Shown here: positions 22,770-62,462 of the stretch, in pieces
Position numbering within the stretch: position 1 is the stretch's first letter
How the letters are laid out: each line of letters starts with the position of its first letter
Origin: Longimicrobiales bacterium
Lineage (GTDB): Bacteria; Gemmatimonadota; Gemmatimonadetes; Longimicrobiales; Gaopeijiaceae
Direction: 5' to 3'
Assembly (NCBI GenBank): GCA_965197725.1
Contig: CBDANQ010000060.1
Coordinates: forward strand, 32,001-96,000
Length of the DNA: 64,000 bases
Position numbers and translations under genes: made by a program
The notes under the pieces: generated by a model
Database searches by the model: none
What the model saw: only the letters and a program-made list of their open reading frames with translations
What the model was told of the DNA's origin: nothing

Positions 22770-22810
<41 letters not shown>

Positions 22811-29594: not shown

Positions 29595-32500
29595 TGTTAG
29601 CGGCCTTCCAATATTGCACACATGTGGCCATCGAAAATTGCACACTTGGCGCTTTGACCTAGCGGGCGGGAGAGTGGGGATGTAGGCACCACCCCGAGCG
29701 ATCTTCCGGCCGATCCACTCACTTGGCGCCTCCACCGAGAACGTGGAGGTGCAATGATCGGAAGGGAGAAGCGCGTGCTGCTCCGTCATTACCTCGAGCA
29801 GGGGATGAACAAGGCGGTGATCGCCCGGGATCTGGGGGTCAGTCGCCGTACCGTGTACCACTGGATAGAGACCGGTCAACTGGACCGGGAGTTGGACGAA
29901 GAGCGTGTCGGGTACGGTCCGAGATGTCTGATGCCGTCGAAGCTGGATCCGTACAAGCCGTTGATCGACACGCGTCTCAAGGAGTACCCGAAGCTCACGG
30001 CTGTACGGCTCTTCAAGGAGGTCCGGGCCGCTGGCTACCCGGGCAGTTACAACCAAGTGAAGCGCTATGTACGCAAGGTCCGGCCTCGACCCCCAGAGGA
30101 GCCGGTCGTGCGCTTCGAGACGGCGCCTGGGCGTCAGGGCCAGGTGGACTTCGCCCACTTCCGGCTACCGTGGGGCAAGCGTTACGCACTAATCGTCGTG
30201 CTGGGCTACTCGAGGCTGCTGTGGGTTCAGTTCTACACCCGGCAGACCATGAAGGCCCTGATGCATGGCCTGGAGTCTTCGTTTTCCTACTTCGGCGGCG
30301 TGCCCTCAGAGCTTCTGTTCGACCAAATGAAGGCGGTCGTCATCGAGGACGGTCGATACGACGATGGTGCCCTCGTCGAGAACCCGGAGTTCATGCGCTA
30401 CGCCTACCACTGGAACTTCAGGATCCGAGCGTGCCGACCCTATCGGGCTCAGACCAAGGGCAAGGTGGAGCGGCCGATCCGCTACCTCAGGGAGAGCTTC
30501 TTCTACGGGCGCACCTTCACGTCGGACGACGATCTCAACGCGCAGGCCCTTCATTGGCTTGAGACGGAAGCCAATGTGCGCAGCCACGGAACGCTGAAGG
30601 AGCGGCCCCTCGATCGCTTCGAGCGTGAACGACTGCTCCTCGAGCCCTTGGCGACTCGCCCGTATCACCCCCTCGTCCTGCCTCCGGATCGCTCCTCACC
30701 CGGCACGACGTCCTTGCCGGCCATCCACGTCGAGCGACGTCCCCTCACGGCCTATGCCCAGATCGCGGGAGGGGACCGATGAAGGCTGCCGCTCGCTCTC
30801 GCCGTGACCGGATCCGAGCCCAGCTCGCCGATCTCAAGATGCCCGGTGCGCTGGAGGCCATCGACGACGTCCTCACTGGGGTCGATGGCGGAGGCGTGAC
30901 GGCCTCGGAGGCCATCGAGCAACTCCTCGGTGCCCAGATCACGCTGCGCAACAACCGCCGCCTTCAGGCTGCGATGCGCTCGAGCCGGCTACCGGGCATC
31001 AAGACCCTCGACGACTTCGACTTCAGCTTCCAGCCCTCGATCAAGCGCGAGCAGATCGACTCGCTTCACGAGCTCGGCTTCTTGGAGCGTAAGGAGAACG
31101 TGATCTTCCTCGGCCCTCCGGGCGTCGGCAAGACGCATCTCGCGATCAGCCTCGCCATTGCCGCGGCTCAGAGGAAGCTGTCCCAACCGTAGTTGAAGGT
31201 TCCTGATAGGGGAGAAAGAAAAGTGGTGGCTCCGGGGGTCCCGGGCCGATAGGCTCGGGTAGGCAAAAACCCCAACACGGAGCCACCACGATGAAGAGAA
31301 CGTACGAGGTAAGGGATCGGGCGGACAAGCGAGCGATCAGGGAGTTCCTGAAGCGGGAGGGGCAGTTTCTGCTTCCGATGCTTGAGCTCGTGGAGCAGAC
31401 GGAGGTCGCGATCGACGAAGTCATCCAGGTGATGGGACGAGCGACGATCGAAGCGGTGCTGGAGATGAGCGCCGAGGGTGTGGCAGGCGTGAAGCAGGCA
31501 GGTCGGTCACGAGCGGAAGACGACACGGTGTGGTATGGCCGGCAGGGTGGTGTGGTTTACCTGTCGGACCGGAAGGTGCGTGTGGAGCGGCCACGGCTCA
31601 GGCGCCGGGGCGCCGGGGAGGGTGGCGAGGTCGAGGTGCCGGCGTACGCAGCGATGCGGAGACCGGGCGCCGTGGCGGATCGGATGCTCGAGGTCCTGAT
31701 GGCGGGGGTGAGCACGCGAAAGTACGGCCGTGTGATCGGTGAGATGGCCGACCCGGTCGGGGTGAGCAAGTCGGCGGTGAGCCGTGAGACGGTCGAGGCC
31801 TCGGAGCGCGTGCTGAAGGAGCTGATGGAGCGCCGGCTGGATGCGTGGGACCTCCTGGTGATCTACCTGGACGGGATCCAGATGGGCTCGCACCACGTGC
31901 TTGCTGCGGTAGGCGTGGACTCAGACGGAAAGAAGCACGTGCTGGGCGTGAGGGAAGGAGCGAGTGAGAACGCCGAGGTGACCAGCGCGCTCCTAGAGGA
32001 TCTGGTCGAGCGCGGCCTGGACCCGGGCAGGCGGCGGCTGTTCGTGATCGATGGCTCGAAAGCGCTCAGGAAGGCGATCGAGAAGGTGTTCGGCCAACGT
32101 CACCCCATCCAGCGCTGCCGCAACCACAAGCTCCGCAACGTGCTGGGTCATCTGCCGAAGGATCAGCATCCTCAGGTGAAGGCGGCGTTCCGGGCGGCGA
32201 TGAAGCTGGACGCGAAGCAGGGCGAGCAGAAGCTCGAGCAGCTCGCCCGATGGCTCGAGCGCGACCACCCCTCGGCCGCAGCCAGCCTGCGCGAAGGCCT
32301 CAGCGAGATGTTCACCATAAACCGGCTCGGCCTCCCACCGCGGCTGAGGAAGTGCCTGGGCTCGACCAACCTGATCGACAGCACCCACTCGGGCGTAAGA
32401 CGGAAGACCCGCAGGGTGACTAACTGGAAGAACGGAGCGATGGCCTTGCGCTGGGCTGCGGCCTCGTTCGTGGAAACCGAGAAGAGCTACCGGAGGATCA

Positions 32501-33157
32501 TCGGCTACGACCAGCTCTGGATGCTCAGGGCCCACCTCGACGACCATGAACCGGTTGCCGAAATGAGAAAGACAGGCTAACCAAGAGACTCTCCGGCGCC
32601 ACCACCTTCAACTGTCAGCGGGACACCATCGCTCAGAGCGGGCGCAGAGTCTACTACGGCGCTCTGGCCGACCTCATCACCTCGCTCGAAGAAGCCAAGA
32701 CCACCGGCCAGCTGGGACGCCGCCTCAAGATCCTCACCTATCCTTCGCTCCTGGTCATCGACGAGATCGGCTACCTGCCGGTCAGCCAGACCGGCGCAAT
32801 GCTCTTCTTCCAACTCATCAACCGGCGCTATGAGCGCGCATCCACTGTGCTGACCTCCAATAAAGGCTTCGAGGAGTGGGGCCAGATCTTGGGCGACGAG
32901 GTCATGGCCGCTGCGCTCATCGATCGCCTGCTGCATCACTGCCATATCGTCAACATCCGCGGCAGCAGCTACCGGATGCGCAAGCACACCGACCTCTCCA
33001 AGATCCTCCACTCGCCTCCTGCGGAGTCGAGCCCTTCACCCCCGAAGAGAAAGAGAGCAAGAGCAAAGGAGAAAACGACGAACTAGAGGCTCGTCACCTC
33101 CGCCAAGTGTGCAATTTTCGATGGCCAGACCTGTGCAGCTTTCGATGGCCGTTGACA
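29595..33157 (+). mobile_element. IS21-family element (istA 29754-30782 intact; istB split by IS256)
   Basis: TGTTAGCGGCC...GGCCGTTGACA ends with internal TGCAATTTTCGATGGCC repeats, 4-bp TSD AAAG; RFETAPG.Q.QVDF, TKGKVER; istB GPPGVGKT. Confidence 0.95.
31174..32630 (+). mobile_element. IS256-family element; transposase 31291-32580
   Basis: 8-bp TSD GCTCAGAG (31166 / 32631) inside istB; imperfect IRs; LDG, IDG, QRCRNHK motifs. Confidence 0.93.
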
Positions 33158-33210
33158 AAAGACGTTAGACAGCAGGTGAGGTCCATGTCAGACGCTCAAC
33201 CGAGTTTCAC

Positions 33211-33756
33211 ATGATTGAGTACTGGCGGCGGCTGGTGCGCAGGTTTGCGAAGCAGCCTGTTGGTGTCCGCGCCGCCTTGATCACGGCAGCAGCGGCATTG
33301 CCGACCTTGACCGCCGTGAAGTGGTACCGGGGCTATCGAGAAGTGCGAGCTGAGGAGCGGCGAATTGTCGCCCGGAATGATCTTGCAGCAGAGCTACTAC
33401 CTCATCTTCGCAGCCTGCAAGATTTGACCGAGTCTGTCCTTACGTCTCTCCGAACTAGCGGGGGACCTGACGAAACCACGATGGACTCCCTGCAGATCGT
33501 CGCAGAGGGATTGTGGGTTTCAGAGCGAGGGATTCGTACCCGGCTCAGCGAGGCTTACGGTGACTCGGTGGGCGTGCATTACTCAGAGACAATCCAGCGC
33601 GCGGATAGCCTGTTTCATGCGCTGTTGAGGTTAGCCGACCGCGAGCGTACGACCCCAGATGCTCTCAGTGCGCTGCGTGCCGAGATCTTTGGTCGGGCCC
33701 TGGAAGTGGGACGACGATCCATCGCTCTTCTGAACACCTTGATCGCGGCACACTGA
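33211..33756 (+). CDS. Hypothetical protein, putative gene cassette
   Basis: Begins ~40 bp after GTTAGAC (33164) and is followed by an attC-like site; N-terminal TM helix. Confidence 0.55.
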   Translation: MIEYWRRLVRRFAKQPVGVRAALITAAAALPTLTAVKWYRGYREVRAEERRIVARNDLAAELLPHLRSLQDLTESVLTSLRTSGGPDETTMDSLQIVAEGLWVSERGIRTRLSEAYGDSVGVHYSETIQRADSLFHALLRLADRERTTPDALSALRAEIFGRALEVGRRSIALLNTLIAAH

Positions 33757-33810
33757 CGGAAGTCCTCAAGAGTCCATGCTCTCGCTGTGTTTGTGCAGTT
33801 GGTTCCTGCT

Positions 33811-33956
33811 TCCCAACACGTATCAGGCCCCCGGAATCAAGAGCGCGCAGCTGGCCCTACCCGCTGCGGCGTGGCGGGCGAGAGTAGGCGAGAGATTCTC
33901 GCGCTACGCTTGCGGTCACCACTGTTGTTGTGCAGCAGAATCGCGAAACGTTAGGC
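33811..33956 (+). other. attC-like site containing an IS1111 end remnant
   Basis: CCCAAC ... GCAGCAGAATCGCGAAACGTTAGGC; 33815-33849 matches the IS end at 34543-34577 (33/35 bp). Confidence 0.6.
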
Positions 33957-34120
33957 GGCTCCGCGAGCCATGTGCTGCATCGACCGCCATTCCCAGACTT
34001 TGCCGGCCCGAGAGTCGACGACCCTGACTTGCGGTGGTGTTGTCTCTGCCTCTGCCGCCTCGCCTCAAATCGAGCGGTCCCACATCGCGTCGTCAGGTAG
34101 GATAGTCGTTACCTTCCAAC

Positions 34121-34327
34121 ATGGATTTGACAACAGCTGAGCGACCCGTCGTTATCCGTGCCGTGGCGGCCTACCGCGAAGCCAAGGCGAAGCATCACGT
34201 CGGTCAGTTTCGTGGCCTGACGGCGGACGCGATTCTCGAAGAACTGGCTCCATCTCCCGTCCGTTGGACGGAACTGGCTGCGCTCGTGATCGCATCAGCT
34301 GAAGAGTCCAGTCGAAGGAAGCACTAG
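34121..34327 (+). CDS. Small hypothetical protein, putative cassette ORF
   Basis: 68-aa ORF between attC-like sites, same orientation as the other cassette ORF. Confidence 0.35.
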   Translation: MDLTTAERPVVIRAVAAYREAKAKHHVGQFRGLTADAILEELAPSPVRWTELAALVIASAEESSRRKH

Positions 34328-34659
34328 TGTCCTGTGCGCGTCCTTACTCGGTGATCTCCGGGCCCAACTCGCCGAACCGTAGTAGGCCGAGGGAGGCTCT
34401 CTCGGCACTCGCACGCGGGATAGCCTAATGAGCCAGGTCGGCGGCGGTGCCCTCCGACGCATCGGTATCGGCGTCACGACAGCCTCTTAGGGCGCTCAGG
34501 ACTCCCGGCCTGCGTCGTGTTCTCCGTGGACCTGAGCTATCTAACACTTATCAGGCCCCCGGAGTCAAGAGCGCGCATGTCCCCCGGCGCGTCGCGGAGC
34601 GGCGCGTAATGAAGTGAGCGTCGGTCGTCGAGTCCTCTGACTTGGTTTCCGTCAACAGG

Positions 34660-35005
34660 TGCGAGCACTTCCGAGCTCTGCACCAAACACTTATCGAGGT
34701 TCAACCGCCGGGTGCCCTTCGAGGCGAGCTCGAAGGAGCGGCGGAGCAGGAGCCTGCTGTGGGCTCCTACGACCTAGAGAAATTCATCTGTGCCCTCGTG
34801 CCGTCCGACTCCATTCAAGGTGAGCAGGCTCGGGCCGAGAGGCGCCGGACCAGTTAGCTCCGGGCTCGGGTGAGGGGCAGAGTCCTGAGTTAGACCGACT
34901 TCGATGTGTGGGGAGCGGGAGGAGGCGTCCAATCAAGCGAGGCGGCTGTCAGGCATCCGGTGCCCGCTCGAGTTAGAAATCGGGGCTCGCGACCTCCCCT
35001 CCCCG
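34660..35005 (-). ncRNA. Putative bridge/seek RNA of the IS1111 element
   Basis: Non-coding region with segments matching both the target (CTAAC, revcomp of CAAGCG/CAAGG) and the donor junction (ATGAATTTC, GATAAGTG); boundaries approximate. Confidence 0.65.
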
Positions 35006-36052
35006 TCAGGTGCGTGTATAGAAGCGTTCGGTGTCGAATGCCTCCCCGTTCTTGAGCATGAAGTAGGTGGCGCGACCGATGCGAGCCGCGAGGATGCTGA
35101 GCGCCTTGCCCTTGCCGTGGCGGCGCGCGAGCCTCTTGAGATGGCCCTGGCCGCGGACGTTGTCGCGTAGGAAGAGGACGGCAGCCTCGCTGAACGCCCA
35201 CTTGAGGTGTGCGTTACCGATCTTGGCTCCTCCGCTGCCGACCCGCTTGCCTGCACTGCGGTGCTCGGGCTTGGCGAGTCGACAGTAGGAGCTGAAGCGC
35301 TGCACTGTGCTGAAGCGAGCGATGTCGTGGATCTCATAGAGCAGCGTGAGCGCCAGGATCCGACCGATGCCGGGGATGGTTCGGAGCCGCTCCAGCGTGT
35401 CGGAGTCGTGGACACGGGCTTCTTCTTCGACCGTACGCTCGAGTTCTCGGATCACGGGGTCGTAGCGATCGGCCAGGGCGAGGTCCGCCTCAATGGTCCT
35501 CTGGATCATGGGATCGTCGAACGCCTGGGCCAGTCCCTCTCGGTTCTTCTTGTAGAGGAGCTGACCCGGGGGCCGAGGCAGGTTGTACTGATGAAAGGTG
35601 TTGCGGACGTGGGCGAGGAGCTCGCCGCGCTTGCGCACGAAGTAGAGTCGGCGCCGGAGCACATCGCGCGTGGCTCGCATCTGGGGAGGATAGACGTAGG
35701 CCACCGGGAACGCACCACCACGCAGCAAGACCGCCGTCTTGTGCGAGTCGATGTGGTCGTTCTTGGCCTTGGCCCCGTGGATCGCCTTCATGTAGAGCGC
35801 ATGGCCGAGCACGAAGTGGATCTGCTCACGAGCACATAGATCGGCGAGCCAGTACCAGCAGAAGATGCACTCGCTGCCCACCACGAGGTCCAAACGGTAG
35901 GGCTCGAGGGCGCGAAGCAGTGCCTCGCGCTCACAGCGTAGCCTCTTGTGCAGTCGTATCTTGCCCTGGCCGTCCAGAACGCAGAGGTAGAGCGTGCGAG
36001 CGTGAAGGTCGATGCCACAGTAGTATCGATGCTGGCCGGTGTAGAAGCGCAT
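35006..36052 (-). CDS. IS110 DEDD recombinase/transposase
   Basis: CGIDLH, GSEC, KNDHID, TIPGIG, FSSYCRL, HRSAG (catalytic Ser); AGGAGG RBS; intact. Confidence 0.93.
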   Translation of the reverse strand: MRFYTGQHRYYCGIDLHARTLYLCVLDGQGKIRLHKRLRCEREALLRALEPYRLDLVVGSECIFCWYWLADLCAREQIHFVLGHALYMKAIHGAKAKNDHIDSHKTAVLLRGGAFPVAYVYPPQMRATRDVLRRRLYFVRKRGELLAHVRNTFHQYNLPRPPGQLLYKKNREGLAQAFDDPMIQRTIEADLALADRYDPVIRELERTVEEEARVHDSDTLERLRTIPGIGRILALTLLYEIHDIARFSTVQRFSSYCRLAKPEHRSAGKRVGSGGAKIGNAHLKWAFSEAAVLFLRDNVRGQGHLKRLARRHGKGKALSILAARIGRATYFMLKNGEAFDTERFYTRT

Positions 36053-36145
36053 GGTTCCCCTCCTGGGTTGGATGGATCGAGCGTCGCGCTCTGATCATTC
36101 CGTCCTCTCTGTGAGAGGTCCAGGAGGGGGCCTGCATGAGTATCA

Positions 36146-36329
36146 AGCCTGGGGACCAGTCCTGCGGGCAGGGAGATGTCGGAAGAAAATGACCTAGGTC
36201 GGCGGCACTTTCTCAGAGGCGCCAAGTAGCAGCGGGTCTTGCTGAAATGACCTTGAGGCCGCGACCCTCGCCTTGCGAGTAGCGCCTTAGGCACGCAATC
36301 TCCCGCAGCAGAATCGCGAGACGTTATCT
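36146..36329 (+). other. Remainder of the interrupted, degenerate attC-like site
   Basis: Ends GCAGCAGAATCGCGAGACGTTATCT, 21/22 identical to 33932-33953. Confidence 0.5.
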
Positions 36330-36867
36330 GGAGTCGATTGCCATGACAGAGACCTCCCAGGAGGGCCTCGTCAGGTGATCCTCCCGCTCGTGTCTCCCTG
36401 TTGACCTCACCGTGAGCCCCCAGATCCTCTGGCTTCGCGTCTTCGTGGAAGGCGTGGTGATCGTCGGCCTTTCCGTCGGCATCATCGGAGAGTTGCTCTG
36501 TCATCCCTCAGGATGAGCGAGAACGCAGGTTAGGAGCGGGCACACCCGTGGATGCGACCCGAAGAGCGGGCCATTCTTTCAGCCCCTAACGCGTTACATA
36601 GCTCCGCGTAGGGTTGGGGCGCGTCGAGCGTGAACTCGGTGAGGGCGGCATGGCGACCCGGTGGCGGGCTGCCCGGACCCGACAGCAATCGCCTGCAGGA
36701 CGGGTCACCAATGGGCACGTGCTTCGGGTGTTTGCGAGGTCTTGCACCTGTCACAACCTTGGACCGGTCGAAACTCCCGACATGCGCAGAACGTGGGCTG
36801 ACGCGTATCATACCCAATCCCGACGCGCGCAGGTTGCTTGTGACGCGACCCGGAAGAGGATTACAGC

Positions 36868-37688
36868 ATGGCATCTTCGGTAGCGATCGTCACGGGCGCC
36901 GCCAGCGGCATCGGAAGACATTGGGCAGACGCGCTTCGGCGTAAGGGCTTCATGCTCGCTCTTGCGGATATCAACGGGGATGGGCTGCACACCGCGTTCG
37001 CGCAGGACGATCATGTCCGGCTACACAGGCTCGACGTGCGATCCGTGGAAGGCTGGCGGCGCATGGCCGAGGACACGGTCACTCGCTGCGGCGCTATCGA
37101 CTACCTCTTCAATATCGCAGGCGGCGGCAGTCCCGGGTTTCTGCTGGACGTTCCCATGGAACTGGTTGATACGACGATCGACGTGAACCTGAAGGGCCAG
37201 ATCTACGGGGTGAAGGTCGTGGGCGACATCATGGTGAAGCAGAGCTCAGGACACATCGTCAACATGTCGTCCTTGGCAGGGATCTCGCCCACTCCCGGCA
37301 ATGAACTCTACTCGGCCGCGAAGTGTGGACTCCGCTCCGTCTCCATCTCCACCGCGGTCCGCCTCCGAACCAAGGGCGTCTTCATGACCGTCATCTGCCC
37401 GGATCTAGTGAATACGCCCACGCTTGAGCGGCATCTGGATGCGGACCCCCTCGACGTGGCCCTCATCCACTCTGGTCCTGGGGCGCTCTCGGTCCAGCAG
37501 TGGAAGCCGCGCTTTGGCAGGCGGTCCGCATGCGTGCCCTCGAGATAGCGGTCCCACGCTCGCGTGGCTGGCTGGTGAAACTCAACAATCTGTTTCCACC
37601 CATCATGCTTCGACTCTACCGCCCCTTGGTGAAGAAGGGACTCAAACGACTTGAGCAGCTCAAACGGGAGCGGACGAAGCGGAGCTGA
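36868..37688 (+). pseudogene. Short-chain dehydrogenase/reductase, frameshift at ~37500
   Basis: TGAASGIG, NIAG, YSAAK; adding one G (CAG GTG GAA) joins it to the 37500-37688 frame. Confidence 0.82.
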
Positions 37689-37792
37689 GCATGGTGTCCA
37701 CCGGGATCACGCTGCCGTCACTGGAGCGAATCGAACTCAGACAGTGCCCGCGCCAAACGCTCAAGGTCGGTTTGGCGCACGACCGGGTAGAC

Positions 37793-38459
37793 GAAGCTGT
37801 CCCAACCGTAGTTGAAGGTCCCTGATAGGGGAGAAAGAAAAGTGGTGGCTCCGGGGGTCCCGGGCCGATAGGCTCGGGTAGGCAAAAACCCCAACACGGA
37901 GCCACCACGATGAAGAGAACGTACGAGGTAAGGGATCGGGCGGACAAGCGCGCGATCAGGGAGTTCCTGAAGCGGGAGGGGCAGTTTCTGCTTCCGATGC
38001 TTGAGCTCGTGGAGCAGACGGAGGTCGCGATCGACGAAGTCATCCAGGTGATGGGACGAGCGACGATCGAAGCGGTGCTGGAGATGAGCGCCGAGGGTGT
38101 GGCAGGCGTGAAGCAGGCAGGTCGGTCACGAGCGGAAGACGACACGGTGTGGTATGGCCGGCAGGGTGGTGTGGTTTACCTGTTGGACCGGAAGGTGCGT
38201 GTGGAGCGGCCACGGCTCAGGCGCCGGGGCGCCGGGGAGGGTGGCGAGGTCGAGGTGCCGGCGTACGCAGCGATGCGGAGACCGGGCGCCGTGGCGGATC
38301 GGATGCTCGAGGTCCTGATGGCGGGGGTGAGCACGCGGAAGTACGGCCGTGTGATCGGTGAGATGGCCGACACGGTCGGGGTGAGCAAGTCGGCGGTGAG
38401 CCGTGAGACGGTCGAGGCCTCGGAGCGCGTGCTGAAGGAGCTGATGGAGGGACACCATC
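37793..38459 (+). mobile_element. Internally deleted copy of the IS256 element
   Basis: Near-identical to 31174-31830, then jumps straight to the right-end GGACACCATC. Confidence 0.88.
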
Positions 38460-38460
38460 C

Positions 38461-38874
38461 TGGATACGGACCTTTCGGTCCGACAGGTAGACCTGACCGC
38501 CCTGGCGGCCGTACCAGACCGTCGCCCCCTCCTCGCGTGCCTTGCCCGATTGCTTCGGGCCCGCCACACCTTCGGCGCTCATCTCGAGTACCGCCTCGAT
38601 CGTCGCTCGGCCCATCATCTGGACGACTTCGTCGATCGCGAGCTCCGTGTGCTCTACGAGCTCGACCATCGGCAGCAGGAACTGGCCTTCTCGCTTCACG
38701 AACTCAGCCATCGCACGCCTGTCCGTGTCCCTCGCTACTTCGTACGTTCTCTTCATCGTGGTGGCTCCGTTTTTGGGTTTTTAGCGCACCCGATCCTATC
38801 GGATCGGGCACCCTCGGAGCCACCACTTTTCTTTTCCCTCTTCAGGGACCTTCAACTACGGCTGGGTCAGCTTC
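38461..38874 (-). mobile_element. 5' fragment of a second, diverged IS256 isoform
   Basis: End GAAGCTGACCCAGCCGTAGTTGAAGGT; MKRTYEVARDTDRRAMAEFVKREGQFLLP. Confidence 0.85.
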
Positions 38875-39184
38875 TTTCGTGGGGTCTCTCAGTCAGTGCG
38901 GCCGTGAGCCTGCAGGGAAAGGGTCAGACGATCGTGAGTGGGCGGACCCCGGACGTCATCATCCAGTCGTTGGAAGGGCCTCCGTCGGAATACACATGCC
39001 TACGGATCCCCTGATCTTGAGGGCATACGACAGATCGAAGATGATCCGACAATTCGCCTTGTCCTTGGGCACCTCCTTACCGAGGTGATTGACGAGGACG
39101 TCCTGGCGTAGGGCGACAGGTATCGACGTGTTCACGGTCGCGAGCTCTATACAAGAGCATCGTGACAAGAGCATCGTGCGGAAC

Positions 39185-39866: not shown

Positions 39867-39940
<74 letters not shown>

Positions 39941-50343: not shown

Positions 50344-52477
50344 TGTCAACGGCCATCGAAAGCTGCACAGGTCTGGCCATCGAAAATTGCACACTTGGCG
50401 GAGGTGACGAGCCTCTAGTTCGTCGTTTTCTCCTTTGCTCTTGCTCTCTTTCTCTTCGGGGGTGAAGGGCTCGACTCCGCAGGAGGCGAGTGGAGGATCT
50501 TGGAGAGGTCGGTGTGCTTGCGCATCCGGTAGCTGCTGCCGCGGATGTTGACGATATGGCAGTGATGCAGCAGGCGATCGATGAGCGCAGCGGCCATGAC
50601 CTCGTCGCCCAAGATCTGGCCCCACTCCTCGAAGCCTTTATTGGAGGTCAGCACAGTGGATGCGCGCTCATAGCGCCGGTTGATGAGTTGGAAGAAGAGC
50701 ATTGCGCCGGTCTGGCTGACCGGCAGGTAGCCGATCTCGTCGATGACCAGGAGCGAAGGATAGGTGAGGATCTTGAGGCGGCGTCCCAGCTGGCCGGTGG
50801 TCTTGGCTTCTTCGAGCGAGGTGATGAGGTCGGCCAGAGCGCCGTAGTAGACTCTGCGCCCGCTCTGAGCCGCGGCAATGGCGAGGCTGATCGCGAGATG
50901 CGTCTTGCCGACGCCCGGAGGGCCGAGGAAGATCACGTTCTCCTTACGCTCCAAGAAGCCGAGCTCGTGGAGCGAGTCGATCTGCTCGCGCTTGATCGAG
51001 GGCTGGAAGCTGAAGTCGAAGTCGTCGAGGGTCTTGATGCCCGGTAGCCGGCTCGAGCGCATCGCAGCCTGAAGGCGGCGGTTGTTGCGCAGCGTGATCT
51101 GGGCACCGAGGAGTTGCTCGATGGCCTCCGAGGCCGTCACGCCTCCGCCATCGACCCCGGTGAGGACGTCGTCGATGGCCTCCAGCGCACCGGGCATCTT
51201 GAGATCGGCGAGCTGGGCTCGGATCCGGTCACGGCGAGAGCGAGCGGCAGCCTTCATCGGTCCCCTCCCGCGATCTGGGCATAGGCCGTGAGGGGACGTC
51301 GCTCGACGTGGATGGCCGGCAAGGACGTCGTGCCGGGTGAGGAGCGATCCGGAGGCAGGACGAGGGGGTGATACGGGCGAGTCGCCAAGGGCTCGAGGAG
51401 CAGTCGTTCACGCTCGAAGCGATCGAGGGGCCGCTCCTTCAGCGTTCCGTGGCTGCGCACCTTGGCTTCCGTCTCAAGCCAATGAAGGGCCTGCGCGTTG
51501 AGATCGTCGTCCGACGTGAAGGTGCGCCCGTAGAAGAAGCTCTCCCTGAGGTAGCGGATCGGCCGCTCCACCTTGCCCTTGGTCTGAGCCCGATAGGGTC
51601 GGCACGCTCGGATCCTGAAGTTCCAGTGGTAGGCGTAGCGCATGAACTCCGGGTTCTCGACGAGGGCACCATCGTCGTATCGACCGTCCTCGATGACGAC
51701 CGCCTTCATTTGGTCGAACAGAAGCTCTGAGGGCACGCCGCCGAAGTAGGAAAACGAAGACTCCAGGGCCAGGTGGACTTCAGCCCACTTCATGGTCTAC
51801 CGTGGTGTAGCAAGCGTGAACGCACTAGCATCGTCGTGCTGGGCTAGCTCGAGGCTGCTAGTGGGTTCACGCTTGCTACACCACGGCAGACCATGAAGTG
51901 CCCTGAAGTGCACCTGGCCCTGGAGTCTTCGTTTTCCTACTTCGGCGGCCGTCTCGAAGCGCACGACCGGCTCCTCTGGGGGTCGAGGCCGGACCTTGCG
52001 TACATAGCGCTTCACTTGGTTGTAACTGCCCGGGTAGCCAGCGGCCCGGACCTCCTTGAAGAGCCGTACAGCCGTGAGCTTCGGGTACTCCTTGAGACGC
52101 GTGTCGATCAACGGCTTGTACGGATCCAGCTTCGACGGCATCAGACATCTCGGACCGTACCCGACACGCTCTTCGTCCAACTCCCGGTCCAGTTGACCGG
52201 TCTCTATCCAGTGGTACACGGTACGGCGACTGACCCCCAGATCCCGGGCGATCACCGCCTTGTTCATCCCCTGCTCGAGGTAATGACGGAGCAGCACGCG
52301 CTTCTCCCTTCCGATCATTGCACCTCCACGTTCTCGGTGGAGGCGCCAAGTGAGTGGATCGGCCGGAAGATCGCTCGGGGTGGTGCCTACATCCCCACTC
52401 TCCCGCCCGCTAGGTCAAAGCGCCAAGTGTGCAATTTTCGATGGCCACATGTGTGCAATATTGGAAGGCCGCTAACA
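50344..52477 (-). mobile_element. Second copy of the IS21 element (istB 50415-51257 intact; istA scrambled)
   Basis: Near-identical to 29595-33157 without the IS256; 4-bp TSD ACGC. Confidence 0.94.
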
Positions 52478-59847: not shown

Positions 59848-61161
59848 ATGAACACGCTTGGAATCCTCGCGTCCTTCGCCGTTGTCACGATAGGCGCACC
59901 GCAAGACCGGGGTCCAGATCCCTTGGACTCGTTGGTTCAGAGGGCCCTCCGGCAGAACCCCAGCATCGTCGCCGCCCAGGAACGCGTCCACGCCGCCGAA
60001 GCACGCGTGGCTCCCTCAGGCGCGCGACCGGACCCCGTCCTTTCGCTCACGATCCGGAACTTTCCGGTGTCCGATCCTGGCTTTCAGGACTTCATGACCA
60101 TGAAAACGGTCGGGCTCTCCCAGCGGTTTCCCTACCCGGGAAAGCTCTCGCTCGCGCGCGAGAGTGCTCGAAGCGAGGTGGCGGCGGCCGATGCAGCCCT
60201 GGACGATCTCCGCCTGGACGTCGTAAGCGAGGTGCGACAGGCGTACTACGAGCTGGCTTTCATCGATCGTGCGATGGAGGTGGTCGCTCGCCACAGCGAA
60301 GTGCTCTCAGCCCTCGTGTCGACCGCGGACGTCCGGTACGCCGTGGGGACCGCTGGCCAGGAGGATGTGCTCCAGGCCCAGGTGGAGACCGCGGCCCTCG
60401 CGGACGAGGCAGCGCGATTGGCGGAGGCCAGGCGGGGAGCGCTGGCCGCGCTCAATCGCAGGGTCGACCGACCACCCCTCACGCCGATCGATCGCGCGTT
60501 CATTCCCCAACAGATGGCTTCGGCGGCGGCGCGTGCTTCTCCCCGCGTCGGCTTCGTGTCGCTCGATCTAGGGGCGCGAGTGGTGGACTCTCCAGTACGT
60601 CCCCTGGAGGAGTTGCTGGACGTCGTAGTAGAGAACAACCCCGCGATCCACTTGCACATCGCAAGGATCGAGGCTCAGCGGGCGCAGCTCGACCTGGCGC
60701 GTAAGGCACACCTCCCCGACTTCGACGTAGCCCTGAGCTACGGGCAGCGGGCCGACCGGACCGACATGGTGACCCTCAGCGTTGCCTTGCCGTTGCCTGT
60801 GAACCGAGGTAATCGGCAAGGCGCGTGGAGCGCCGAGGCGCAGGCGGAGTTAGCCGCCCTCGAGGCCGAGCACCGGGATCACGTGAACACTTTGCGCTCG
60901 AGGGTGGCCGCAACACATGCCAACCTGGAGAAAGATCGGACGAGTCTGGCTCTTCTTACCGCTGGCATGCTTCCCCAGGGATCGGCGGCGCTCCAGGCCG
61001 CGACGGCGGGGTTCGGTGTCGGCCGCACCGACTTCCAGGCCGTGCTGGCCACCCAAGCCACCCTATTCCAATACGAAATCAGCTTCCTGCGTGCGCTCAC
61101 AGACTTCGCGAAGAACGTCGCGGAGCTCGAGAGGCTCGCGGGAGAGGGAGTCCTACGATGA
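59848..61161 (+). CDS. TolC-family outer-membrane efflux protein (CusC-like)
   Basis: Two OEP repeats, SQRFPYPGKL, first gene of RND operon. Confidence 0.9.
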   Translation: MNTLGILASFAVVTIGAPQDRGPDPLDSLVQRALRQNPSIVAAQERVHAAEARVAPSGARPDPVLSLTIRNFPVSDPGFQDFMTMKTVGLSQRFPYPGKLSLARESARSEVAAADAALDDLRLDVVSEVRQAYYELAFIDRAMEVVARHSEVLSALVSTADVRYAVGTAGQEDVLQAQVETAALADEAARLAEARRGALAALNRRVDRPPLTPIDRAFIPQQMASAAARASPRVGFVSLDLGARVVDSPVRPLEELLDVVVENNPAIHLHIARIEAQRAQLDLARKAHLPDFDVALSYGQRADRTDMVTLSVALPLPVNRGNRQGAWSAEAQAELAALEAEHRDHVNTLRSRVAATHANLEKDRTSLALLTAGMLPQGSAALQAATAGFGVGRTDFQAVLATQATLFQYEISFLRALTDFAKNVAELERLAGEGVLR

Positions 61162-62462
61162 GCACGACGAGCTCGATCACTGGCGTTCGTGTCCGGTGGC
61201 TGGTTACTGGCGCTCTGATGGGGGCCATCAGCCTTGCCGCGGTGTTGTCGTTTCGGGGCGCGCTGACGGACGCTTCAGGGGAGTCGACCATGAGCGAGTC
61301 CGCGTCGATGGAGATGAGCGCCATGGACATGGCCCAGTCCGTCGTACGCGTCACACCGGCCCAAATCCGTCAATTCGGGATCACCTTTGCCTCGGTGGAG
61401 GAGCGTTCCCTGGCGGCCCGGGTCCGAACCGTGGGCGTGGTCGAGGCCGATGAGACGCGCCTGGCCGAGGTTACCACGAAGTTCTCTGGATACGTGGAGC
61501 ACCTCTACGCTGACTTCGCCGGGAAGTTCGGCGAGGAGGGCTCCGCCCTACTCGACGTATACGCGCCCGAGCTGGTCGCCGCGCAGGAGGAGGTCCTCGT
61601 GGCCCGTGACCTTCAGGCCACCATAGGCGCGGTGGCGATTCCCGGAGTGACGGCTGTGCCCATAGATCTGGAAGCAACCGCTCGGCGGCGCCTCAGCTTG
61701 TGGGATATCACGGACGACCAGATCATCGCGCTGTTGGCGGAAGGGCAACCCCGTAGAACGCTGAGTCTGACTGCACCGATATCTGGGGTCGTCCTCGAGA
61801 AGAGCGTCGTCGTCGGCAGCGCGTTCCAGGCCGGGCAGACACTCTTCCGTCTCGCCGATCTGTCGAGCGTGTGGATCGACGTGGAGATCCGTGAGAGCGA
61901 CGCGGCTATCGTCGCGCGCGGGTCAGCGGCTGTCGCGTCATTGACGGCCTATCCCGGGGAGGAGTTCTCCGGTGTGGTTGACTTCGTCTACCCTACGGTA
62001 GACGAGCGTACGCGTTCCGTCCGGGCGCGTGTGGTACTCCCGAATCCGGCGGGACGCTTACGCCCCGGAATGTTCGCGACTGTCCGCGTCACCACGCCCA
62101 GGCGGAGCGCGCTGTCGATACCTACGGATGCCATAGTGTGGACGGGCGAGCGGACCCTCCTCTTCGTCGAAGAGGAAGGTGGAGGGTTCCGACCGGTCGA
62201 TGTCGAAGTGGGAGCGACGATCGGGGACTACGTCGTGGTGTTATCCGGCGTGGCGCCCGGACAACGAGTGGTCACGTCGGCCCAGTACCTGATCGATGCC
62301 GAGGCCAATATCGGGGCGATCATGCGCAGCATGATGAGCATGTTGGGTGCGGGCGACATGGCCGGCATGGACATGAGCGACTCGGACTCGGAAGCCCCGA
62401 TGGAGGGCATGGACATGCCTGGCGATTCCGGCTCCGCTCCCCCGACCCCCCCGGGGAGGTGA
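61158..62462 (+). CDS. RND periplasmic adaptor (CusB-like)
   Basis: YAPELVAAQEE, ADLSSVW, LRPGMFA; Met-rich termini; ATGA overlap with tolC. Confidence 0.9.
   Translation: MSTTSSITGVRVRWLVTGALMGAISLAAVLSFRGALTDASGESTMSESASMEMSAMDMAQSVVRVTPAQIRQFGITFASVEERSLAARVRTVGVVEADETRLAEVTTKFSGYVEHLYADFAGKFGEEGSALLDVYAPELVAAQEEVLVARDLQATIGAVAIPGVTAVPIDLEATARRRLSLWDITDDQIIALLAEGQPRRTLSLTAPISGVVLEKSVVVGSAFQAGQTLFRLADLSSVWIDVEIRESDAAIVARGSAAVASLTAYPGEEFSGVVDFVYPTVDERTRSVRARVVLPNPAGRLRPGMFATVRVTTPRRSALSIPTDAIVWTGERTLLFVEEEGGGFRPVDVEVGATIGDYVVVLSGVAPGQRVVTSAQYLIDAEANIGAIMRSMMSMLGAGDMAGMDMSDSDSEAPMEGMDMPGDSGSAPPTPPGR

Follow-up and report, generated by a model that had tools for sequence, protein, structure and literature searches.

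A predicted two-domain bridge RNA in an environmental IS1111-type element with one target-binding loop that tracks integron attC sites

The bridge RNA of IS621 is 177 nt long, compared with a non-coding tail of ~460 nt in the IS1111-type element described here. SeekRNAs have been described for the attC-targeting IS1111 elements ISKpn4, ISPst6 and ISPa25 (Siddiquee et al. 2024, PMC11187229), and the rule for IS1111 is that the match complementary to the top strand lies 5' of the bottom-strand match (PMC11187229). According to Table 1 of PMC13604230, these three elements insert at AA*CG or AG*CG, 10 nt upstream of GTTAG. For IS1111 bridge RNAs, the descriptive text of Durrant et al. 2024 (PMC11208160) places the nucleotides that bind the donor within a multi-loop.

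The window, by which we mean the whole stretch of DNA analysed (64,000 nucleotides), carries an element that resembles ISKpn4, ISPst6 and ISPa25 in having a DEDD transposase, subterminal inverted repeats and a non-coding region downstream of the gene (Table 1). The transposase matched PF01548 (DEDD_Tnp_IS110, E 5.1e-09) and PF02371 (Transposase_20, E 2.5e-19) and scored 187.7 bits on NF033542, 'IS110 family RNA-guided transposase' (cut-off 140). It contains the motifs GIDLH, SECIF, NDHID and HRSAGK, recognized by eye and with a putative catalytic role; compared by eye alone, the ISKpn4 transposase looks very different from it. On the minus strand the left junction reads ...GGCT[TG]ATACTC (core 36145-36144) and the right junction ...GATAAG[TG]TTAGAT (core 34546-34545), with the layouts GGCT[TG]ATACTCATG-CAGGCCCCC and GGGGGCCTG-ATAAG[TG]TTAGAT, respectively. 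The TG core is present at both junctions in four copies with no target duplication, as is characteristic of IS110/IS1111 elements. The subterminal inverted repeat CAGGCCCCC / GGGGGCCTG comprises 9 bp, within the IS1111 range of 7-17 bp, and lies 9 and 5 nt inside the ends. The tail of ~460 nt extends from the stop codon (35008-35006) to the right end, compared with ~90 nt upstream of the start codon, and a long non-coding region downstream of the transposase gene is typical of the IS1111 group. By these sequence features the element is an IS110/IS1111-type RNA-guided transposase element.

Four full copies with 100% identity were found in the genome, on contigs C60 (the window), C29, C52 and C59, and fragments of the element on C32, C40 and C52. 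The flanks of the copies, AGGCT[TG]TTAGATAGC, GCGCT[TG]TTAGGCATC, GCCCT[TG]...TTAGATGG, ATCGCT[TG]TTTGGAATG and ATCGCT[TG], differ and diverge exactly at the element ends. Identical copies with flanks diverging at the ends are marks of an active IS1111-group element. Neighbouring genes in the window encode IS21, IS256-type and rve transposases, a beta-lactamase-fold protein and a short-chain dehydrogenase.

Table 1. Positions of the element and its predicted RNA features in the window
Feature	Positions	Strand	Basis or remark
Whole IS1111-type element	34545..36145	-	both TG core copies counted; 1597 bp between cores
Transposase / bridge recombinase gene, 348 aa	35006..36052	-	Pfam and NCBIfam matches
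Left end ATACTCATG, then subterminal inverted repeat CAGGCCCCC (36134-36126)	36126..36143	-	9-nt repeat shared with right end
Unit 1, candidate target-binding loop: 5' and 3' loop strands on either side of an inner hairpin, closed by an outer stem	34912..35002	-	consensus fold, 19 sequences
T1 candidate guide ATTTCTAAC, complementary to right flank G|TTAGAxx	34972..34980	-	co-variation with right flank
B1 candidate guide CCTCGCTTG plus AT, copies left flank, core and first two left-end bases	34932..34942	-	co-variation with left flank
'Orphan' GTCTAAC, linker between the two domains	34889..34895	-	probably chance
Predicted multi-loop closing helix, 5' strand ACTCTGC	34877..34883	-	pairs with 34681-34675; columns 153-159/374-380
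Unit 2, predicted arm A of donor-binding domain: stem, target-loop-like internal loop, hairpin	34793..34876	-	anchors in 132/160 loci; compensatory stems
T2, GAGCTAAC, arm A 5' loop strand	34853..34860	-	TAAC conserved, other bases variable
B2, CACCTTGAAT, arm A 3' loop strand	34813..34822	-	left-flank signal weak to absent
Td candidate donor guide ATGAATTTCT, complementary to left end TGATACTCAT with two fixed mismatches	34778..34787	-	co-variation with left end
Predicted arm B of multi-loop, two hairpins	34697..34775	-	compensatory pairs in consensus fold
Bd candidate donor guide GATAAGTG plus TT, copies right end, core and first two right-flank bases	34686..34695	-	co-variation with right end
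Predicted multi-loop closing helix, 3' strand GCAGAGC	34675..34681	-	consensus fold and family pair counts
Right end: TTGACT (34568-34563, -35-like), subterminal inverted repeat GGGGGCCTG (34560-34552), terminal ATAAG	34547..34568	-	

Relatives of the element were collected from two sources. A one-genome-per-species scan detected relatives encoded in 505 stretches, and the 80 best of these (56-96% identity) were used; a metagenome scan yielded 584, of which 80 were used, giving a homologue set of 160 loci. Judged by record titles, the 505 and 584 relatives span Gemmatimonadota to Desulfobacterota and Nitrospirota. Transposase matches were also detected by tblastn in 629 plasmid records, all with less than 60% identity, and distant-mode blastn of plasmid records with the tail gave no match. 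An Rfam scan of positions 33000-37500 with E up to 10 returned six matches, all far below gathering scores and none to a bridge RNA family. Left ends resembling TTGATACT recur among the homologues, in which the CTTGAC of the right end is conserved as well.

The motif order was identical in all 12 tails inspected, including that of the window. It starts with unit 1 (GAGCC-N-TAAC-T[CG]G, a hairpin, N-TTGATTGGA) and continues with unit 2 (CTCTGCCCCTCACCCGAGCC-N-TAAC-TGG, a hairpin, TTTGA-N-T-NGG-ACGGCACGAGGGCAC), followed by GATGAxTTTCTAGG, hairpins, ATA[A/G]GTGTTTGGTGCAG and the right end. Both units can be aligned and have the common layout GAGCC, 5-9 nt, TAAC, TGG, hairpin, TTGA-N-T-NGG. Unit-1 anchors were present in 105 and unit-2 anchors in 132 of the 160 loci, the loci without anchors being contigs that end early or diverged copies. 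Since the anchors recur across these loci, the two-unit layout is the family norm and not peculiar to the element in the window. Unit 1 measures ~90 nt in this element and 130-180 nt in most relatives, compared with 82-86 nt for the short seekRNA of ISKpn4, ISPst6 and ISPa25.

A consensus fold was computed from the tail of the window and 18 relatives, omitting L120 with its stretch of 228 nt. It comprises 78 predicted pairs, 16 of them with compensatory changes, and leaves the loop strands unpaired. Compared with shuffled sequences, the fold of the whole tail showed no extra stability (z -0.54), a comparison that is uninformative in G+C-rich DNA. Unit 1 is predicted to fold into an outer stem, a CCN/N'GG stem and an inner hairpin, with T1 and B1 forming the two unpaired strands of an internal loop; compensatory changes occur in the outer stem (columns 17-32/101-116).

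Co-variation of these strands with the insertion sites was analysed by taking T1 and T2 as the nine bases 5' of the invariant AAC, and B1 and B2 as the nine bases 5' of the invariant TTG. T segments were set against the right flank in reverse complement, B segments against the left flank. The starting set comprised 164 sequences (the 160 loci, the window and three copies from its own genome). After removal of sequences missing an anchor or flank, 82 non-identical loci were usable for T1, T2 and the right flank, and 81 for B1, B2 and the left flank. As anchors failed in about half of the loci, these tests describe the anchor-keeping part of the family. T1 gave 358 matches to the right flank compared to a shuffle mean of 291.5 (z 6.8), and B1 gave 277 matches to the left flank compared to 187.8 (z 8.7), values reached in none of 2000 shuffles, which ignore relatedness. 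In sets thinned such that the guides of any two loci differ at at least 6 of 24 positions, leaving 22 loci for the T and 46 for the B guides, the z values were 4.5 for T1 and 5.9 for B1, with 0 of 3000 shuffles reaching either. Concordantly, a position-by-position scan revealed a diagonal of B1 with the left flank, where positions -4 to -1 gave z values of 3.8-6.5, and a diagonal of T1 with the right flank. The TCGCTTG of B1 matches exactly the flanks of the copies on C59 and C32. T1 usually matches just 3-4 of the 6 bases adjoining AAC, which implies that target reading is loose. These patterns in the sequences support unit 1 as the target-binding loop.

The flank consensus of the 80 sites with both flanks available was ..GTC.GcTGCA.ccgcTTG|TTAGGCggcgtc (right half TTAGGC), and the insertion point corresponds to the R' site of an integron attC, TTG|TTRRRY. 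Many sites, for example those of L015, L061, L062 and L066, are plain attC sites composed of an R'' box (..CTAAC), an imperfect palindrome and an R' box GTTRRRY. In the genome under study, an integron integrase gene (TIGR02249, 410.6 bits, cut-off 265) was found at C32:61015-61956, with a broken copy of the element ~0.6 kb away at C32:62591-63975. The left flank of this broken copy and the site of L013, whose transposase is 96% identical, have GACTGCAGCAATCGCTTG in common. The target occupied in the window itself forms no obvious attC hairpin, and the 64-kb window contains no integrase gene. A reverse complement of R' was found upstream of 24 of 64 sites versus 21.3 in the control, a test that does not discriminate, given how similar the R' boxes are from site to site. 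The identification of the target as attC is based on the flank consensus, the visible hairpins and the integrase, which together bear out the initial annotation on this point; insertion into attC is also a trait of the IS1111-attC group.

The integron integrase itself recombines attC at G|TT; inserting at TTG|TTAG, the element therefore enters at, or within 2 nt of, this crossover. ISKpn4, ISPst6 and ISPa25 have in common with the present family, in the published descriptions that we compared, a top-strand match located 5' of the bottom-strand match and a target in the 3' part of attC, ending TTGTTAG. Unlike these elements, with AA*CG or AG*CG as given in Table 1 of PMC13604230, the family inserts at TTG|TTAG, in the R' box itself, and is thus a separate lineage that enters attC at another point.

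The second domain of the tail is predicted to be a multi-loop. In its closing helix, 69 of 75 distinct sequences retain the pair adjoining CTGC/GCAG, as TA, TG, CG or GC (0.66 expected), and 53 of 75 retain the next pair (0.51 expected). Inside this helix the consensus fold places, in order, arm A, Td, arm B and Bd, with Td and Bd single-stranded and Td directly 3' of arm A. Compensatory changes in arm B include the column pairs 279/355 (UA 10, GC 7, CG 2), 283/304 (AU 11, GC 4, CG 3) and 311/346 (GC 9, CG 6). Arm A is unit 2, which according to this fold model is one arm of the donor-binding domain.

Both single-stranded segments track the element ends. The Td base opposite the sixth left-end base co-varied with it (0.72 observed versus 0.33 expected, z 7.9); the Td-left end pairing holds two fixed U-T mismatches, and just one position is variable enough to test. 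For Bd, the variable base of ATA[A/G/C/T]GTG tracked the same position of the right end (0.92 versus 0.44 expected, z 9.6). Thus, T1 and B1 co-vary with the flanks and Td and Bd with the ends, as is the case for guides of IS110/IS1111 elements, and T1 is located 5' of B1 and Td 5' of Bd, which is the IS1111 order of matches. Beyond the core, B1 (..TTG-AT) and Bd (..GTG-TT) both continue for 2 nt into the sequence present there once recombination has occurred.

The initial annotation had proposed, from the letters of this DNA, that the tail of an IS1111 element encodes a bridge RNA with two tandem target loops and one donor loop. The segments on which it relied, TCTAAC (34977-34972), CGCTTG (34939-34934), GTCTAAC (34895-34889), GCTAAC (34858-34853), CCTTG (34820-34816), ATGAATTTC (34787-34779) and GATAAGTG (34695-34688), were all located as described, and the junctions with their cores agree as well. 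The clustering of the motifs is not due to chance: counting both strands, the 64-kb window has 11 occurrences of CTAACT (7.25 expected from shuffles), and three of these fall on the same strand within a 125-nt stretch of the tail. The reading of the tail as the bridge or seekRNA region of an IS1111-type element is supported, and so is that of unit 1 as a target loop, with T1 tracking the right flank (z 6.8) and B1 the left flank (z 8.7). The proposed donor guides also held: the left end co-varies with ATGAATTTCT (ATGAATTTC) and the right end with GATAAGTGTT (GATAAGTG). Of the order and polarity assigned to the guides, the pairing logic stood, whereas the left and right labels are reversed with respect to the element: if the recombinase strand is taken as the top one, the right-flank complement comes first and the left-flank copy second. 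In homologues both units are predicted to fold with unpaired internal-loop strands, as had been anticipated, and the co-variation of guides with insertion sites that was expected along with this applied to unit 1 and not to unit 2.

The orphan GTCTAAC between the domains, which had also been listed, is absent in relatives with 94-96% identical transposases. The site reads TCTCAC in L013 (96%) and TCC-AC in L011 (94%), and judging from these sequences the motif probably arose by chance.

The idea that units 1 and 2 are both programmable target loops, served by one donor loop and thereby multiplexed against two attC variants, has the layout of unit 2 in its favour, which is that of unit 1, with unpaired loop strands flanked by conserved stems. 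A fold of 56 out of 90 non-redundant stretches (34 were left out, the two longest among them) revealed compensatory changes in the unit-2 stems CCCTC/GAGGG (one pair being CG 40, UA 11, UG 5) and CCN/N'GG (CG 18, UA 16, GC 5, broken 16). Nevertheless, the same loci that gave strong T1 and B1 signals showed no flank co-variation of T2 and B2. T2 matched the right flank (82 loci) at 244 positions compared to a shuffle mean of 243.6 (z 0.0, reached by 1025 of 2000 shuffles), and B2 matched the left flank (81 loci) at 206 compared to 189.2 (z 1.8, 74 of 2000 shuffles). The thinned sets gave z -1.1 for T2 and z 1.1 for B2 (444 of 3000 shuffles). No diagonal appeared when T2 and B2 were scanned by position against the flanks, the left end, the right end and the inverted repeats. 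The variable bases of T2 did not pair with other segments of the RNA either; the sole match, between T2 position 2 and B2 position 15, corresponds to the CCN/N'GG stem. The right end contains CTCCGGG, whose reverse complement matches the segment CCCGGAG in T2; we attribute this match to chance, as it is not kept in relatives.

A multiplexed guide would also be expected to leave its trace in individual sites, and a few of these do resemble unit 2. In two loci, L021 and L025, all nine T2 bases agree with the right flank, and the site on C52 matches B2 at CCTTG, one base more than B1. Yet the left flank of L021 fits B1 and not B2, and the two full-length T2 matches are what chance allows among mutually similar attC sites. 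Loci with at least 5 of 6 T2 matches numbered 3 versus 2.6 expected from shuffles (2461 of 5000 shuffles reached 3). Where T1 fits poorly (at most 2 of 6 matches, 16 loci), T2 did not fit better, with a mean of 1.69 versus 2.24 overall. T1 exceeded T2 in 55 loci, compared with 11 for the reverse and 16 ties. The four occupied sites of the own genome matched the ideal target of unit 1 at 8, 7, 5 and 8 of 12 positions, with at least 7 being reached by 15 of 1865 TTGTT sites. The same sites matched the ideal target of unit 2 at 5, 3, 5 and 2 of 12, with at least 5 being reached by 356 of 1865. Three of the four thus fit unit 1 better, one is a tie and none fits unit 2 better. Neither unit 2 as a second programmable target loop nor a guide for two attC variants withstood these comparisons, and we consider such multiplexing highly improbable; our literature search found no report of a bridge RNA with two target-binding loops. 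Unit 2 retains the layout of a target loop (GAGCC..TAAC-TGG...TTGA-N-T-NGG) without, in all likelihood, being programmed to the target. Its absent signal suggests that arm A most likely serves as a scaffold, structural or protein-binding, and originated by copying of the target loop.

A less probable role for arm A, in our view an outside chance, is that of a constant loop pairing with the invariant crossover bases (TAAC with G|TTA, TTTGA with TTTG|A), acting in core sensing or as a 'handshake'-like strand-exchange helper on target or recombinant junctions. The conserved loop bases of arm A exactly match the family-invariant TTG|TTA, and the extension of B1 and Bd 2 nt past the core (TTG-AT, GTG-TT) recalls the handshake guides of IS621 as outlined in PMC11208158. 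On the other hand, the sole variable position, C or A before TAAC, does not track the flank (0.55 versus 0.48), and an IS621-type synaptic complex fits two DNA duplexes, both already taken by unit 1 and Td/Bd; the invariant bases themselves are beyond the reach of co-variation. Formulated more broadly and held to be just as doubtful, arm A could be a fossil copy of the target loop in which just the crossover bases (TAAC and TTTGA) survive and which serves as a constant second DNA-reading loop, docking on the TTG|TTA of attC R' sites or on recombinant junctions, for instance to make a first, PAM-like check or to assist strand exchange or excision. If arm A did read DNA, this would be a three-loop bridge RNA.

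We regard it as scarcely credible that the conserved tail acts as DNA, with transposase-binding or regulatory sites, and not as RNA. This reading can draw on the Bd-encoding DNA having served as a pseudo right end on C52, but it conflicts with the compensatory base changes that maintain one-strand stems. The guide logic moreover reproduces that of proven seekRNAs and bridge RNAs of the same protein family, as presented in PMC11187229 and in the text of PMC11208160.

On C52, the right end of the element is followed by a second copy of its last 143 nt, which starts exactly after the internal GATAAGTG. In these sequences, the Bd-encoding DNA is a look-alike of the right end plus TT and was evidently used as a right end.

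The reading that we favour, and hold to be quite probable, is that the IS1111 element is guided by a two-domain bridge (seek) RNA encoded in its tail, with unit 1 as target loop, the second domain as donor multi-loop and unit 2 as one arm of it. T1 ATTTCTAAC would pair with the target's right half, on the top strand, and B1 CCTCGCTTG-AT with its left half, on the bottom strand, together directing insertion to ..CGCTTG|TTAGA.., where attC has its R' end (GTTRRRY). In the second domain, closed by CTCTGC/GCAGAG, ATGAATTTCT and GATAAGTG-TT would pair with the left and right ends. Excision is proposed to form a circle joining TTGACT (34568-34563), a 17-nt spacer and GATACT into a junction promoter, in which ATACT would constitute most of the -10 element. 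By analogy with ISEc11, ISKpn4 and IS621, a single transcript covering transposase gene and tail may start at this promoter; the tail would then be processed from it and bound by the transposase. By the same analogy, unit 1 would hold the attC site while the multi-loop holds the joined ends. The element or part of it was present in assembled contigs of 20 of 24 sequencing runs. Among these data, run X18, an RNA library, contains a 288-nt contig over 34850-35138 that, with 21 differences and 4 gaps in 289 nt, belongs to a relative; it may represent DNA.

This arrangement has in common with IS621, in the passages of PMC11208160 and PMC11208158 describing it, one RNA with target and donor modules and the reading of both strands around a shared 2-nt core. 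The guides extend into the sequence of the partner in a handshake logic as well, although on the other guide than in the IS621 account of PMC11208158. In contrast to IS621, where the RNA lies 5' of the gene, it lies 3' here and the order of the guides is reversed. The donor guides furthermore are placed in a multi-loop instead of a simple internal loop, and there is an extra arm shaped like a target loop. An RNA in the right end and multi-loop donor binding are also shared with the IS1111 bridge RNAs predicted by Durrant et al. 2024 (PMC11208160), as compared by text description and not by figures.

As only unit 1 tracks the insertion site, the element of the window is an ordinary member of this known class and not a double-aimed guide. 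With it, the RNA-guided IS110/IS1111 elements gain a large environmental lineage in which all four guide segments can be read from sequence and checked by co-variation. Unlike the clinical IS1111-attC elements, this lineage strikes attC at or close to the crossover of the integrase. For the engineering of bridge recombinases it offers many natural variants of the target loop, and it illustrates that a guide-like loop need not be a guide. Around the second domain, a long-range helix GTCGGTC/GACCGAC was considered as well, which RNAalifold did not predict and which was left uncounted; the two strands carry a compensatory change in L013 and L011 (ATCGGTC/GACCGAT).

In the genome that carries the IS1111-type element, contigs C52 and C32 also hold copies of it. 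On contig C52 (19504-21252, locus L003) a full element copy is followed by a repeat of its final 143 nt, the first base of which lies immediately after the internal donor-guide-encoding GATAAGTG. Guide-encoding DNA seems to have served as a pseudo right end in this contig. The copy on contig C32 (62591-63975) is broken into three rearranged pieces, and its 3’ portion with the guide-RNA tail is missing. About 0.6 kb from this copy lies the gene of an integron integrase (61015-61956; TIGR02249, 410.6 bits).

A solo right end was identified in the window itself (see table). It reads CTCTTGATTCC-GGGGGCCTG-ATACGTG and adjoins GTTGGGA at ~33815. An attC-like site that starts with GCCTAAC at ~33958 has this solo right end at its 3’ end. 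This site and the insertion site of L013, a relative whose transposase is 96% identical to that of the window, have GTGGTGACCGCAAGCGTAGCGCG in common. The solo right end was probably left behind by a related element.

The copies of this genome carry a 2 nt insertion between the Td donor guide and the two-hairpin arm B (window 34776-34777, minus strand TTTCT-CT-AGG), which is absent from the 55 other sequences of alignment A2 and also from the assembled contigs of sequencing runs X1 and X3. In seven distant homologues (L045, L051, L054, L060, L066, L068 and L083), the donor guide is directly followed on its 3’ side by a conserved TGTTTGGTG, the reverse complement of the CACCAAACA located at codons 5-7 of their transposase genes. 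TGTTTGGTG might pair with the start of the transposase mRNA in these homologues. The copy of the window lacks this complementarity.

An IS256-type transposase element of the Mutator family is present in two direct copies. Between them lie the attC-like sites, the gene of a short-chain dehydrogenase and the IS1111 element, and the whole could constitute a composite arrangement. The ORF of the second copy matches the family over its first part only. Furthermore, large inverted repeats carrying an rve-type transposase and an IstB (IS21) ATPase are situated in a region crowded by many insertion sequences.

Repeated and remnant mobile-element features in the window
Feature	Position	Orientation	Length, identity
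Solo right end	33808-33876	minus strand	69 nt, 77% to the element's final 69 nt
IS256-type pair	31170-31469 and 37789-38088	direct	300 nt, 99%
ORFs of the IS256-type copies	31291-32580 and 37910-39088		
Large perfect inverted repeat	29595-31173 and 50863-52477	inverted	100%
Large perfect inverted repeat	32631-33157 and 50344-50870		

Within the cassette adjoining the element, a weak match to Hammerhead_1 (34293-34337, plus strand) scored 22.7 bits versus a gathering score of 34 (E value 0.042) and probably arose by chance. An identical 41 nt pair (GCCCTCATAGCTCAGGTGGATAGAGCG...) occurs 17 kb apart at 22770-22810 and 39867-39907; by sequence appearance, each stretch resembles the 5’ portion of a tRNA gene.
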